NCBI RefSeq assembly: GCF_003334315.1
Contig: NZ_QOWR01000008.1
Length of the DNA: 64,000 bases
Direction: 5' to 3' (one strand)
From: Escherichia coli
GTDB taxonomy: Bacteria; Pseudomonadota; Gammaproteobacteria; Enterobacterales; Enterobacteriaceae
Every line of letters begins with the position of its first letter. Position 1 is the first letter of the stretch. A program made the position numbers and the translations under genes. This document shows, one piece after another, positions 2,468-60,116 of this stretch. The notes under the pieces were generated by a model. The model ran no database searches, was not told the DNA's origin, and was given only the letters and a program-made list of their open reading frames with translations.

Positions 2468-5792
<3,325 letters not shown>

Positions 5793-7184: not shown

Positions 7185-7628
7185 ATGGCAGAACATGGCG
7201 CGCTGGCGACCCTGAAAGATCTGGCAGAAAAAGAGGTAGAGGATGCCGCGCGCCTGCTGGGTGAAATGCGTCGCGGGTGTCAGCAGGCGGAAGAACAGCT
7301 CAAAATGCTGATCGATTATCAGAATGAATATCGCAATAACCTCAATAGCGATATGAGTGCCGGGATGACCAGCAACCGCTGGATCAACTATCAGCAGTTT
7401 ATCCAGACGCTGGAAAAAGCCATTACTCAGCATCGCCAGCAACTTAATCAGTGGACGCAGAAAGTTGACATTGCCCTGAACAGCTGGCGAGAAAAGAAAC
7501 AACGTTTGCAGGCCTGGCAGACACTGCAGGAACGGCAATCCACGGCGGCACTGCTTGCAGAAAACCGCCTCGATCAGAAAAAGATGGATGAGTTCGCCCA
7601 GCGCGCCGCCATGAGGAAACCTGAATGA
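7185..7628 (+). CDS. fliJ: flagellar export chaperone FliJ
   Basis: 147 aa coiled-coil protein. Confidence 0.9.
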
Positions 7629-33838: not shown

Positions 33839-33914
33839 TCCTCTGTAGTTCAGTCGGTAGAACGGCGGACTGTTAATCCGTATGTCACTGGTTCGAGTCC
33901 AGTCAGAGGAGCCA
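33839..33914 (+). tRNA. asnT: tRNA-Asn (GUU)
   Basis: TCCTCTGTAGTTCAGTCGGTAGAACGGCGGACTGTTAATCCG...GAGCCA, 76 nt. Confidence 0.95.
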
Positions 33915-51552: not shown

Positions 51553-51628
51553 TCCTCTGTAGTTCAGTCGGTAGAACGGCGGACTGTTAATCCGTATGTC
51601 ACTGGTTCGAGTCCAGTCAGAGGAGCCA
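51553..51628 (+). tRNA. asnV: tRNA-Asn (GUU)
   Basis: identical to asnT sequence. Confidence 0.95.
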
Positions 51629-53771: not shown

Positions 53772-54515
53772 TTATAGCAGTGCCAGCAGGAAGACCAGTT
53801 CACCAAGCTCTATAGCAGCTCCCAGCGTATCGCCGGTTTGCCCGCCCAGCGTACGTTTGAGAAGCTGACCGAGGATGAAAATCGCCACCATCGTCACCAC
53901 CATAGCAGCCACACCATGCATACCCGGCAATAATACGGCAGCAAAAATAGCGGCTAAGCCGAGTGTGACGCAGGTTTGTCGCCCATCAATTTTGCCAATG
54001 AACACATTGCCAAGCCCTTCTTCCCGCGCATAACGATGACGATACATCAATAATGCGGCAGTCCCGCGGCTGACCGCACATGCTGCCGCCAGCGATGCAA
54101 GGATCGGTTCGCCACGCAGAGCCAACTCGCTTAATACCAGAATCTTTGCCAGTACAACAAAAATCAATGCCAGACCGCCATGGGTGCCTAAACGGCTATC
54201 ACGCATGATTTCCAACATGCGATCGCGGCTACGTGCAGAAAATACGCCATCACAGGTATCGGCGAGGCCGTCCAGGTGGAATCCCCCGGTCATCAGCGCC
54301 AGCACAAGTACGCTAAACAGTGCCGCCAGTGGTACGCCACACCATGCCTGCAGCACCATGAAGACCAGCCCGCTAATCGCGCCAAGCAATAATCCAATTA
54401 AAGGAAAAGTAATAATACCGCGAGAATAATGCTCGAAATCCAGTCCCTGGGACCAGCGACGCGGTACAGGCAGACGCGTAATAAATGAGAGCATCGCCCA
54501 AAATAATTTACTCAT
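53772..54515 (-). CDS. cobS: cobalamin-5'-phosphate synthase
   Basis: 247 aa from [14 protein letters not shown] extends to 54551. Confidence 0.9.
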
Positions 54516-55057
54516 TTGATTTTTACTCCAATACCCGAAACCACCAGCCATACTTCATTTGCCGCAGCGGCCAACTGCTGATTTACCCGCCCGGCAATAT
54601 CACGAAAATGTCGTGCCAGACGACTCTCCGGCACAATCCCCATTCCCACTTCGTTAGTCACTAATACAACCTTTGCGGGGCAACGTTGGCAGGCAGCAAT
54701 CAACGACTGAATCTCAGCATTAATCGCCTGTTCCATCGCCTGATAATCCCATTCATCAGGGTCTTTATCGCCGCCATAATCAAACAACAGATTAGTCACC
54801 ATTGTGGTAACGCATTCCAGCAACACAACCTCATTCGGGTTAATGTCTGCATGAATTAATTCATCAAGATGTTGCCAGCGCTCCACTGTGCGCCAGTGCT
54901 CCGGGCGGCCTTGCCGATGATGTTCTATCCGTGCAGCCATCTCATCATCAAGGATTTGCGAGGTAGCGATATACAGAACCTGTGAAGAGTCCCCAATAAG
55001 CGCCTCTGCGTGGCGACTCTTCCCGCTCCGTGCGCCCCCCGTCACCAAAATCATCAT
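54512..55057 (-). CDS. cobU: adenosylcobinamide kinase / guanylyltransferase
   Basis: 181 aa, P-loop GGARSGKS. Confidence 0.95.
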
Positions 55058-56539
55058 ACCGACTCCTGATTCAAATGTATGATGGTATTCATTGAACAGA
55101 ACAATGGATCCCCCACCGTTGCTGACCGCAAAACATTTACGCGATTAATACTGCGCGTAATATAATTAAAAATCCAGCATTCTCAATCCATTACGAAATA
55201 AGATGGCATTACGGAATAGCCAGACTTTCTCGTGTTAACGTCCGACAAAATGTGTCATTGACAGCGGTTTCTGTGGATTGACACATTTCATTCAGATAAT
55301 GAATTAATGCTACTGCCGGACCAACCAGCAAACGGGCATTGTGTTCTGAAATCCAGGCTATTGATTCAACGTCAGCAACAGATCTGCGCTGTAAAAGAAC
55401 TTGTAAAACAACGCAATAGAATTATCCGGAATGGTGGCGACTATGCACTAGAACACCACAATTTCGCTCTCTCGGTAAGGCACTGTCACAGCATTCAACA
55501 GAATGTGACTTGCCAGATTTATTAGCGCCACCAGATGTTTAACCGGGTAACCACGACCCAGTCGGGGATATATTCCATCTTCTCGCTGACATCATCAAGA
55601 ATAAAAAGGTTTATCACACTCAGAGCAACGTTCTTCAGCAGGCGGGATAATTCTTCAACATTTAGAAGATGTGTTATTAAAGGCATACAAACTGGACGTA
55701 TTGTATTTTCTTTTGGTGGTTGACCTAAGGTAGCAGTTTATCCTGATGCGCTGAGATTTCTGTAATATCTACGTCAACATTCTCCTCGAATAGAAAATGC
55801 AGCCCCGGCAAGTGATTCACATTTTTTAACAAAACGTTGTTAGCGTGCCATTTTCAGAAGCTCTCCAAGAAAGCGAATTCTTTTCTCAAATTCTGCATTC
55901 TCAGACACAGCTTTCTACTCCATGGCAATGGCCCAAATACGAAGTTGCTCAGGATCATTAGTGGTGCTGAGAAGTTAAATAACCATGCGGAGTACCACTC
56001 GTCATCACGTATTTATATATCATGAAGCTATTGTTGTGTTTTGTACATCAGTAGATGTATTCTGATATACTCCTTTTGCTAGACATAACCTTTCACCTGC
56101 TTGCAAAGCTTCTGTGTTCTGACATTGCCAAATTGTTGCAATTCTGTATCCAGCCTTCTTTCAGTCATAGCTTCGGGCCGCGATAAGACTCACTGATCTG
56201 ACCCTGATTCCTCTTGCAGACTTTATAGACCAATTAAAATGCAGTTTCTGCAGGTCAACGTCTGACCATCATTGTCATCACTCTGGCCATTAGAGTAACC
56301 TTCTGCATTCATCCTTTTGTAAAAAGTTTATAGACTGGCCCCCTGAATCTCCAGACAACCAATATCACTTAAATAAGTGATAGTCCTGATACAAGTTTTT
56401 AGAGTAGTCATTAGTGAACAGATAATTGTTAACTTAGAACCAGTAAAATGCAAACGACGCACCACGCTGGGAAAATCGCTGCTATTCAGCAGAGTTTTGT
56501 ACCGAGAATTGTGGCCAGCCACTTATTGCTCTCGCGTAA

Positions 56540-56999
56540 GCAGGTATCCCCATCGTTTACCAGTCCAGCACATCTTGTGGTCAGGCAGAAGAAGAGCAAA
56601 CTGTTACTGGACTCACTGCATGCATGGTGGAGAAAAATGCCACGCTATCCAAAAATCCAGACTGGGAGAATGGTTCAGCTGTGTACTGAATCAGTGGGGC
56701 GCACTCTGTTATTACAGTGTTGACGGTCAGGCGGAGGCAGACATAATGCCGCGGAAAAAGCCCTTTGTGCCATCTGTCTCGGAAATAAAAACTTTATGTT
56801 CTTCGGCGGCGAGCGCAGTGCACTGTTGTATGGGCTTATCGGCACTTGCCTTCTGAACGACATTGATCCGGAAGCGTATCTGCGCCATATCCTGAGCGTA
56901 CTGCCGGAATAACCTTCCAACCGTATTGATGAACTCCTGCCATGGAACGTAGTTCTCACCAATAAATAAGCATCAATATGATTCTCCATTAACGCTTAC
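56540..56999 (+). pseudogene. IS66-family transposase (TnpC-like) 3' remnant with terminal inverted repeat
   Basis: shifted frames encode ...FGGERSALLYGLIGTCLLNDIDPEAYLRHILSVLPE... and ...ELLPWNVVLTNK*, typical IS66 TnpC C-terminus; downstream TGATTCTCCATTAACGCTTAC looks like IS66 IR; left boundary uncertain. Confidence 0.55.
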
Positions 57000-57107
57000 C
57001 TTTTCTCAGGCTATTTTTGCTTTTTTTTGCTTTTCCCCGCCACTTTATGGTGATTATCACATCAATATACATCGATAGATATTAACGTAACTGAAGTGAG
57101 GTGAAGC

Positions 57108-58322
57108 ATGAAATTTGAACGCCATCATGAAATATTGAAACGACTCAGTAAATTCGGTTCTGTAAAAGTATCCGATCTGTCCAATAGCCTCAATGTAACG
57201 AAAGAAACTATTCGTTCAGATCTTAATGAACTTGCCAGGCTTGGCTATCTGACTCGATGTCATGGCGGTGCTTTTATCGTCCTAGACTCGCTTGATACTA
57301 TTGCGAAAAATGAAATCGCTTATGCGCTTGAAAATTATGATACAGCCCAGGGAATAAAAAAAGGCCACTCAACTATGAAAAGTCAAGTATGCGTTATTGG
57401 TTCGTTTAATGTTGATATCATCAGTTATTTGCCGAGGCTTCCCACTATCGGAGAATCGCTTCTGGCAAGTAATTTTATATTTTCACCGGGGGGAAAAGGC
57501 TGTAACCAGGCGCTGGCAGCAAGCTTTGCCGATACTGATGTTTATTTCATAACAAAAGTAGGTACAGATCACTTTAGTGATTATGCGATCAACTTTATGA
57601 ATTCGTCTAAGATTTATAAAAGTATAATTTATCAAACGAAAGAAACGCAAACCGGAACTGCCACGATCCTTGTTAATGAAGGTACTGGCGATAATGTTAT
57701 TGCGATCTATCCCGGTGCCAACATGACAATGTCGTCCGATGAAATAACTATTCAGAAAGAAGCGATTATTAATTCTGATGTCATACTTCTGCAGCTCGAA
57801 ACAAATTATACCGCTCTGCAACAAGCGATCACATTGGCGCAAAAAAACAGTATCCCGGTCATTATTAACCCGGCACCCTATAATGATATCGTCAACGAAC
57901 TTATTCAGGATGTTGATTATATCACCCCCAATGAAACAGAAGCTGGTTTACTGTCCGGCATAGACGTACACGATCTTGAATCAGCTAAACGAGCTGCAGA
58001 AGCTATCCACAATAAAGGGGTAAAAAACACGGTTATCACGCTCGGTAGCAAGGGCTCGCTCGCATTTGATGGCAAAAAATTCATTCATTCGCCAGCGTTT
58101 CCAGCGGTCGTTAAAAATACGGCAGGAGCCGGGGATGCGTTTAACGGCTCTCTGGCATCAGGACTTGCGAAAGGAAAATCACTGGAATCAGCACTGTGTT
58201 ATGCCAGCGCCTTTGCATCCCTAGCGGTGGAGACAAGCAATGCTTCCGACATGCCTGAACATGAATCTGTGATACATCGAATTCAGAGTATACATTATCA
58301 GCAAACTATTTTTACGCATTAA
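57108..58322 (+). CDS. fusion protein: N-terminal DeoR-type HTH plus PfkB-family (ribokinase-like) sugar kinase
   Basis: N-terminus HEILKRLSKFGSVKVSDLSNSLNVTKETIRSDLNEL (DeoR HTH); kinase motifs SPGGKGCNQALAA and NTAGAGDAFNG; low GC. Confidence 0.7.
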   Translation: MKFERHHEILKRLSKFGSVKVSDLSNSLNVTKETIRSDLNELARLGYLTRCHGGAFIVLDSLDTIAKNEIAYALENYDTAQGIKKGHSTMKSQVCVIGSFNVDIISYLPRLPTIGESLLASNFIFSPGGKGCNQALAASFADTDVYFITKVGTDHFSDYAINFMNSSKIYKSIIYQTKETQTGTATILVNEGTGDNVIAIYPGANMTMSSDEITIQKEAIINSDVILLQLETNYTALQQAITLAQKNSIPVIINPAPYNDIVNELIQDVDYITPNETEAGLLSGIDVHDLESAKRAAEAIHNKGVKNTVITLGSKGSLAFDGKKFIHSPAFPAVVKNTAGAGDAFNGSLASGLAKGKSLESALCYASAFASLAVETSNASDMPEHESVIHRIQSIHYQQTIFTH

Positions 58323-59150: not shown

Positions 59151-60116
59151 ATGAAAAAGAATAAGTACTCAACTCCCTTATGGATGCTTGCCACGATTCT
59201 TGCGGGTATGCTCTCCCCTATGCAATCAGCGGTGAATGGTCAATTAGGTCACTGGTTACAGGATGGTAATGCATGCGCAGTTATCTCCTTTGCCAGTGGT
59301 TTAGTCGTGATGTTTTTTATTATTATGGCGCGAAAAGAAACCCGGCAACAATTTGCGGCAATTCCTTCTCTGATTAAAAACCGAAAAGTTTCTCTCTGGA
59401 ACTGGTTTGCCGGTCTCTGTGGAGCGATGGTGGTATTTTCTGAAGGCGCATCAGCCAGCGCACTCGGGGTCGCAACGTTTCAAACCGCACTGATCTCCGC
59501 GCTATTGCTGTCTGGTTTACTTTGCGATCGCTTTGGTATCGGTGTCGACGAGAAAAAATACTTTACCCCTTATCGCATCATCGGTGCATTATTTGCGGTT
59601 ATTGCTACGATTTTTGTTGTGTCACCTCAGTGGCATTCTACCTCTTTCATCTTACTTGCCATTCTTCCGTTCTTAGCTGGTTTGCTTGCAGGATGGCAGC
59701 CCGCTGGAAATGCAAAAGTAGCTGAAGCTACGGGATCCATGCTGGTTTCAATCACCTAGAATTTCATCGTTGGATTTTGTGTTTTAGGCACAGCGCTAGC
59801 TATTCGTGTCGCATTAGGGCACGTCACTGTTCAATTACCAGATGTCTGGTGGATGTATCTTGGCGGCCCGCTTGGACTAATGTCTATCGGTTTAATGGCC
59901 ATTTTGGTCAGAGGTCTGGGGTTACTGATGCTGGGGGTTGCTTCAACGGCGGGCCAGTTACTGGGATCAGTATTGATTGACGTATTAATTCCATCGCTGG
60001 GCAATAGCGTTTATCTGGTCACGATCATCGGAACACTGTTTGCACTGGTCGGTGCAATTGTTACCACTATTCCGGAATACAGAACCTCGAAAACAATGAA
60101 GAAAATGGAGGTATAA
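59151..60116 (+). pseudogene. YdcZ/DUF606-like DMT-superfamily inner membrane protein interrupted by in-frame TAG
   Basis: ORFs 59151..59759 and 59853..60116 share one frame; the 31 codons between them have no other stop; both halves hydrophobic; N-terminus SPMQSAVNGQLGHWL resembles YdcZ. Confidence 0.55.

Follow-up and report, generated by a model that had tools for sequence, protein, structure and literature searches.

In the stretch of the Escherichia coli chromosome analysed here (64,000 nucleotides of contig NZ_QOWR01000008.1, assembly GCF_003334315.1; hereafter the window), cobT, cobS and cobU all lie on the minus strand, and the next intact gene after cobU is a DeoR/PfkB fusion gene that starts at 57108 and belongs to a small islet. 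The intervening DNA, which begins at 55058, carries remnants of cbiP, cbiG and four insertion sequences (ISs), listed in Table 1. It is very probably non-functional debris at a site where Escherichia once had pdu–pocR–cbi genes beside cobUST.

The region is widespread. Many other RefSeq E. coli chromosomes contain 55058..57107 at 100% identity, and the whole arrangement, taken as at least 80% of this interval in one place, is carried by 774 of the 5426 complete genomes. In the identical RefSeq genomes the Prokaryotic Genome Annotation Pipeline (PGAP) places no intact gene in 55058..56999 between cobU and the DeoR/PfkB gene. Rfam returns no match at E ≤ 1 within 54000..58000, and at gathering score over the whole window it finds only tRNAs, DsrA and RseX, all of them outside 55058..57000. 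A first-pass annotation, made from the letters of the window, had described 55058..57000 as gene-poor, decayed DNA, and this description is borne out: PGAP marks only pseudogenes there, apart from the 54-aa 'hypothetical protein' that it gives in some genomes, and intact conserved genes and regulatory RNAs, looked for in the RefSeq annotation and with Rfam, were not found. Its statement that no open reading frame (ORF) exceeds about 70 codons holds for 55058..56376 (longest ORF 72 aa) but fails for the last 600 bp. There, mechanical translation yields ORFs of 159 aa (56377..56856, plus strand, GTG start), 104 aa (56675..56989, minus strand) and 91 aa (56448..56723, plus strand). These cross or sit inside the IS2-like and IS66 remnants, partly off the transposase frame, and the records examined annotate no gene for any of them.

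Table 1. Features of the cobU–DeoR/PfkB interval, with positions in the window
Feature	Position	Strand	Basis or remark
cobU	54512..55057	minus	region begins at 55058
cbiP (cobyric acid synthase), decayed 3' end, last ~49 codons	55058..55205	minus	collinear DNA alignment
sigma-70-like site TTGAGA-16-TATATT	55159..55186	minus	within the cbiP remnant; the cobU ATG is ~100 nt downstream
cbiG (cobalt-precorrin-5A hydrolase), N-terminal-domain fragment, codons ~88-143, 9-nt deletion	55209..55353	minus	indirect homology and synteny
PGAP pseudogene 'cobalamin biosynthesis protein'	55209..55352	minus	missing N-terminus
PGAP pseudogene 'IS4 family transposase'	55361..55549	minus	
IS4-family transposase, internal fragment, insZ-like	55362..55549	minus	nucleotide identity, parallel translation
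CTAG site, empty in the window	55448..55451		in K-12 occupied by IS5H, flanked by a 4-bp duplication; overlapping blastn pieces
PGAP 'hypothetical protein' WP_001128468.1, 54 aa	55522..55686	minus	in some genomes only
IS66-family tnpC, N-terminal 151 codons, five in-frame stops, small gap	55543..55986	minus	tblastn
IS66-family tnpB remnant, last ~25 codons, same element	56029..56104	minus	DNA alignment
iso-IS2 (IS3-family) left terminal repeat and decayed orfA start	56331..56568	plus	left-repeat identity, InsC match
ISEc23-like IS66 3' end, tnpC codons ~401-537 and right terminal repeat	56573..56999	plus	nucleotide identity, tblastn
PGAP pseudogene 'IS66 family transposase'	56574..56912	plus	

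The cbi scar upstream of cobU

The fragment nearest to cobU that PGAP recognizes is identified as cbiG through intermediates. An exhaustive phmmer search relates it to three proteins of 129-144 aa, P0137 to P0139, at 65-76% identity. These begin with the CbiG N-terminus; P0139 aligns with positions 1-127 of the 351 in the NCBIfam CbiG model NF004463 (E 1e-23) and with Citrobacter CbiG at 47% identity (E 8e-31). In GCA_033741315.1, an Escherichia-like genome, the P0139 gene is flanked on one side by pocR and a cobalamin riboswitch (RF00174, 111.7 bits) and on the other by cobU. NCBIfam gave no match to the cbiG fragment and Pfam none to P0139, and neither database returned anything useful for the stop-masked remnant translations. 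A word-indexed protein search with a 50-aa peptide returned E. coli fragments and nothing else, and the name given by PGAP may for that reason be circular. The label 'cobalamin biosynthesis protein' is in any case uninformative, the fragment being derived from cbiG.

The order pduF–pocR–riboswitch–145-aa 'hypothetical protein'–cobU is found in 642 of the 5426 complete E. coli genomes (~12%). In strain LF82, LF82_328, listed beside the Pdu/cob regulator, is annotated as CbiG (PMC4509574). Homology between the window and such pdu-positive E. coli extends from cobU to 55353 at 95.6% identity and stops there. It is through these genomes, with their pdu–pocR–B12 riboswitch–cbiG'–cobU order, that the ~300 bp next upstream of cobU can be identified, and on the strength of alignment and synteny this DNA is shown to be the scar of an internal deletion in the cbi operon. 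The joint, at about 55205-55228, connects cbiG codon ~143 to cbiP codon ~458. The scar is present in GCA_033741315.1 too, a lineage in which identity over the cobUST DNA falls to ~88-90%, and would therefore appear to be old.

The cbiP side of the joint is decayed as well. In Citrobacter, cbiP lies directly before cobU and overlaps its start, and collinear alignment with this cbiP-cobU junction recovers ~150 nt of the cbiP 3' end in the window, where the ancestral stop/start overlap GTATGATG is still present. The remnant has a Smith-Waterman score of 15-18, above all shuffles (maximum 14). No reading frame survives in it. The similarity that blastn detects between the window and Citrobacter ends 31 nt past cobU, at 55088, and tblastn with Citrobacter CbiP finds no match in 55058..55360 at E ≤ 10, the homology being at the DNA level only. 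PGAP leaves this remnant entirely without annotation.

Matches to the DNA upstream of cobU start at several points within ~360 bp across E. coli. In strain XJ6-3 the tmaR–pduV remnant is joined straight to window position 55245, a clean tmaR–pduV'–cobU deletion, and in GCA_004211955.1, also Escherichia-like, an IS3-family remnant is joined at 55326. The variety of breakpoints within so short a distance supports the reading of this site as a hotspot. The proposal that the part of the region outside the right-hand IS66 piece is debris of earlier insertions or deletions has accordingly held up, with nearly all of its pieces now named and several breakpoints located near cobU. In O157:H7 strains (e.g. 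NZ_CP038339.1) the match upstream of cobU runs from ~55308 and the record has two places, which suggests an extra insertion or rearrangement inside the cbiG fragment.

In the window, cobUST is without the riboswitch- and PocR-controlled upstream region seen in pdu-positive strains; no covariance-model match to the cobalamin riboswitch RF00174 was found upstream of cobU, either at E ≤ 1 in 54000..58000 or at gathering score in the whole window. Because that control region has been lost, transcription of cobUST must start nearby. The sigma-70-like site inside the cbiP remnant has 10 of 12 consensus matches, and the homologous Citrobacter sequence is coding, GC-richer and without such a site. It is a candidate cobUST promoter. 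Lawrence and Roth, in the Journal of Bacteriology in 1995, reportedly described several promoters, and induction by cobinamide, for E. coli cobUST.

Part of the debris may thus have been co-opted, either as a promoter or regulatory region of cobUST within the cbiP'/cbiG' scar, or to encode, in the IS remnants, a small RNA or protein. The missing upstream control region and the position of the sigma-70-like site would fit this explanation, as would the naming of the 54-aa ORF as hypothetical protein WP_001128468.1 in some genomes. Promoter-like sites are, however, no commoner in the region than shuffling predicts (5 against 5.2), Rfam gives no match, and the 54-aa ORF is accounted for by the decayed tnpC frame, which happens to stay open there and runs on into the IS4 fragment. 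Co-option is therefore unlikely. A little less probable again is a broader version, in which the AT-enriched cbiP/cbiG remains (55058..55353) would serve pdu-negative E. coli as the cobUST promoter and regulatory region in place of PocR/riboswitch control, and the conserved 226-bp piece at 56105..56330 or the ORFs of the IS remnants may be active too.

Insertion sequence remnants and the K-12 island

Collinearity with K-12 over 55058..56332 is broken by IS5H alone and ends at 56332. The two K-12 matches, 54458..55451 at 99.5% identity and 55448..56332 at 99.8%, overlap at the empty CTAG site. K-12 yeeH (b4639) corresponds to window 55361..55447 and yoeG (b4640) to 55454..55986. After 56332 K-12 continues with yoeH, yoeA, IS2F, yeeP and flu, whereas the window has an iso-IS2 end, an ISEc23-like remnant and the DeoR/PfkB islet. 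Relative to K-12 the yoeH and yoeA segment is absent beside the iso-IS2 end, which is what an IS-adjacent deletion would be expected to leave. In K-12 a perfect 16-bp inverted repeat (CCACGGACCGCACTCT…AGAGTGCGGTCCGTGG, at 7395..7435 of the K-12 locus L003) overlaps the 5' end of yoeH; it is missing from the window because the breakpoint lies at 56332.

The first of the IS remnants cuts into the cbi scar at ~55353-55362, in the window as in most E. coli. It is an IS4-family fragment that comprises yeeH and the 3' part of yoeG and is 80.3% identical in nucleotide sequence to an IS4-family gene copy located between tdk and adhE, which PGAP itself calls a pseudogene. Its translation, ...YPVKHLVALINLASHILLNAVTVPYRESE...IPDNSIALFYKFFYSADLLLTLNQ, runs parallel to that of the tdk/adhE copy. 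At ~55543-55549 it is fused to the first IS66 tnpC remnant, which matches residues 1-151 of TnpC WP_001370715 (tblastn, 46% identity, E 7e-23). The closest intact IS66-family elements, on chromosomes and plasmids, are ~71% identical to this remnant in nucleotide sequence, and the DNA alignment with the intact element continues to 56104. It includes the 3' end of tnpB directly upstream of tnpC, spaced as in an intact IS66 element (TnpB aa 107-124: tblastn 50% identity, E 0.04). An extension of the IS66 tnpC into 55460..55591, based on a 'PLYRQSEI'-like match, was considered and dropped, as that stretch exactly parallels the IS4-family pseudogene.

A minus-strand reading frame ending in YIPDWVVVTRLNIWWR and a stop had been taken as the possible tail of another decayed gene. 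The frame exists, as the 54-aa ORF of Table 1, but it is an internal piece of TnpC and not a C-terminal tail: it covers TnpC residues ~100-151, continues into the IS4 fragment and owes its stop codon to the junction. Upstream of the tnpB remnant lie 226 bp (56105..56330) that are collinear with K-12 and 99.8% identical to it. They contain no reading frame. Searches in distant mode found no match beyond their own locus in E. coli genomes, plasmids or phages, and their translated pieces have no significant match in NCBIfam, PHROGs or Pfam (best PHROGs E 0.12).

In K-12 part of this DNA is assigned to the cryptic prophage CP4-44, and the region could on that basis be the decayed left end of the prophage, with its attachment/integration module. 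The K-12 record puts the CP4-44 boundary at the equivalent of window 55313, and the homology with GCA_004211955.1 stops nearby. Yet every identifiable piece is either an IS fragment or cbi debris and nothing is phage-like; the 226-bp piece, in addition to its lack of a significant PHROGs match, has no match in 50,697 phage records, and the region contains neither a tRNA nor an integrase. A prophage end is thus most improbable here, and the membership of the region in CP4-44 would appear to be a matter of K-12 annotation only. The yoeF region of K-12 corresponds to a pduV remnant, and the other end of CP4-44 therefore also lies in pdu debris.

The iso-IS2 piece that follows the breakpoint has its first ~55 nt identical to the left inverted repeat (IRL) of IS2. 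The piece is 83% identical to IS2F and 88.7% identical to the IS2-like remnant beyond yoeA in K-12, and residues 18-52 of InsC match it at 43% identity (E 0.008). At ~56568-56573 it is fused directly to the 3' end of an ISEc23-like tnpC. The IS66 TnpC C-terminus, in shifted frames, that the first-pass annotation had placed at the right end of the region is confirmed by tblastn with ISEc23 TnpC, whose residues 401-537 match 56574..56966 at 57% identity (E 2e-43); the remnant measures ~427 bp where ~450 bp had been estimated. Its frame is shifted by a single nucleotide at two places, 12 nt have been deleted and a Trp codon has become a stop (TGG>TAA); its DNA is 83% identical to that of ISEc23. 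The terminal repeat predicted after it is likewise present, as ...CGCTTAC ending at 56999: the reverse complement of 56974..56999, GTAAGCGTTAATGGAGAATC..., aligns with the right end of ISEc23 and has the 5'-GTAAGCG start of an IS66 repeat. This repeat borders the DeoR/PfkB islet.

Several further observations concern this end. A remnant of an IS66 tnpC 3' end, 88% identical to window 56844..57005, is annotated in K-12 as yoeD (with yoeF in the region NC_000913.3 2078517..2078931). The DNA just outside the repeat, 56999..57010 (CTTTTCTCAGG), resembles ACTTATCTCAGG on an IncI1 plasmid (L012 3460..3470), which is the 8-bp target duplication and flank of an unrelated ISEc23 copy; the likeness could be accidental or point to a preferred target site. 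A 25-nt K-12 match to an ISEc23 flank was tried as an IS66 end and dropped, since it is a hairpin in flanking DNA and not a repeat.

Plasmid pMTY9754_NA1 (AP026488.1) has a segment 97.7% identical to window 56565..57312, which takes in the IS66 end together with ~200 bp from the start of the DeoR/PfkB gene. The plasmid also has an IS2-like end, with a 736-bp IS3-family fragment between. On this IncFIB/IncI plasmid, 3486..5213 comprises the IS2-like end, the IS3-family orfA fragment, the ISEc23-like remnant and the DeoR/PfkB start, truncated by IS1. Transfer between chromosome and plasmid, in one direction or the other, has therefore involved part of this junction and, because the same junction is found on pMTY9754_NA1, the right-hand IS66 remnant belongs with the islet and not with the cobU side.

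The two IS66 pieces cover complementary parts of tnpC (aa 1-151 and ~401-537) and lie 600 bp apart on opposite strands, as might two halves of one element that an IS2-like insertion had split and partly inverted. This is barely credible in view of their sequences. The 3' piece, for all its likeness to ISEc23, shares only 30% aa identity with the element nearest to the 5' piece, and ISEc23 TnpC has no match to the 5' piece at E ≤ 1. In K-12 the 5' piece is present at this site while the 88%-identical 3' copy, yoeD, is ~12 kb off at the other end of CP4-44, and on the plasmid the 3' piece accompanies the 5' end of the islet. Two IS66 lineages are consequently recognized in the region.

Beyond the DeoR/PfkB gene, the DMT-family transporter gene of the islet (59151..60116) has an internal stop and is a pseudogene in the annotation of an identical genome; to its right come a gamma-glutamyltransferase fragment and an ISL3 transposase gene that has decayed. 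The islet is therefore itself decaying. On the other side, four tRNA genes at 33839, 47323, 49144 and 51553 have identical Rfam scores of 72.6 bits and are presumably copies of tRNA-Asn of the asnT/W/U/V type flanking a variable region. The one at 51553 was equated with K-12 asnV by comparison, the sole copy of the four so placed.

Events at the cobU end and comparison with known systems

The remnants are consistent with a sequence of three events. An internal deletion of the cbi operon would have come first. The loss of pdu, pocR and the riboswitch would have followed, together with IS insertions and IS-adjacent deletions, and the islet would have arrived last, bringing its IS66 end with it. 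The fragments are predicted to yield no functional product. The present-day role of the region would be passive, in that the AT-enriched cbiP remnant probably provides the cobUST promoter, the riboswitch/PocR-controlled one being gone.

Some points weigh against this account of the region as debris of a pdu–pocR–cbi locus. The order of events is deduced from present-day arrangements and not from a phylogeny, and the absence of function is read from the sequence. The cbiP remnant is backed by collinear DNA similarity of modest score, and the 226 bp at 56105..56330 gained no assignment from the searches of genomes, plasmids, phages and protein families. The single apparent intermediate, a 2936-bp metagenome contig (L017; ENA ERZ1755392 NODE_6221), has pocR–riboswitch–cbiG codons 1-25 joined to IS4 piece–cbiG'. 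It was rejected as an evolutionary intermediate, its junction being found in none of the 5426 complete genomes and its coverage being 1.7x, and it is probably a chimeric assembly. The IS4/cbiG' junction that it contains is of the kind typical of pdu-negative E. coli, and protein P0136 is found on this contig only.

The cbiG assignment, for its part, depends on P0137-P0139 plus synteny, the direct tblastn of CbiG against the window being not significant alone. That 55209..55352 is instead a C-terminal cbiP remnant, so that the whole cobU-proximal stretch is one decayed cbiP, was assumed initially from the position of cbiP before and overlapping cobU in Citrobacter and is compatible with the PGAP label, but it was dropped and is already refuted, as the CbiP search is blank, the phmmer relatives match NF004463 and Citrobacter CbiG and start as CbiG does, and cbiP-derived DNA is limited to 55058..~55205.

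The first-pass annotation is supported as right in outline. The region is an ordinary one: a known, already annotated mosaic of pseudogenes and IS remnants at the cobU end of a CP4-44-type island. The present analysis refines that picture by locating the cbiG–cbiP scar, by explaining yeeH and yoeG, and by separating two IS66 lineages and placing the iso-IS2 breakpoint. These are details at the level of annotation, and their practical value is small. They clarify that yeeH is an IS4 fragment, yoeG the 5' end of an IS66 tnpC and the 'cobalamin biosynthesis protein' of PGAP a cbiG fragment. Breakage has recurred upstream of cobU, with pdu and cbi lost and islands gained there. This is of use for annotation hygiene and to anyone choosing the cobU–yoeG locus for integration; it opens no new biology.

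The IS remnants at the right of the region can be set beside their intact counterparts. The iso-IS2 piece has the identical left inverted repeat and a recognizable start of orfA (insC), but only ~240 bp of IS2 are left, the interior is diverged (83% identity) with internal deletions, and orfB and the right end (IRR) are absent. For ISEc23, the correspondence covers the 3' 430 bp, in which the end of tnpC and the right inverted repeat both lie. This remnant has no more than the last quarter of tnpC, and it lacks tnpA, tnpB, the left end and any target duplication. The tnpA-tnpB-tnpC organization of an intact mobile IS66 element, with two ends and an 8-bp target duplication, is thus not found at 56573..56999, which is a remnant and not an element.

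The cobU side has two such counterparts. In pdu-positive E. coli (e.g. CFSAN018748, and LF82 with its LF82_328) cbiG codons 1-87, the riboswitch, pocR, pduF and pdu are retained, whereas the window has IS debris from 55362 and no riboswitch; the cbiG'–cbiP'–cobU scar is common to both. Compared with the cbi-cob operon of Citrobacter and Salmonella (cbiA…cbiG…cbiP-cobU-cobS-cobT), the window is without ~7.5 kb that begin within cbiG and take in most of cbiP, and everything upstream of cbiG is gone. Nevertheless, the last ~150 nt of cbiP and one piece of cbiG are still recognizable beside a homologous cobUST, whose CobU retains 83% aa identity.

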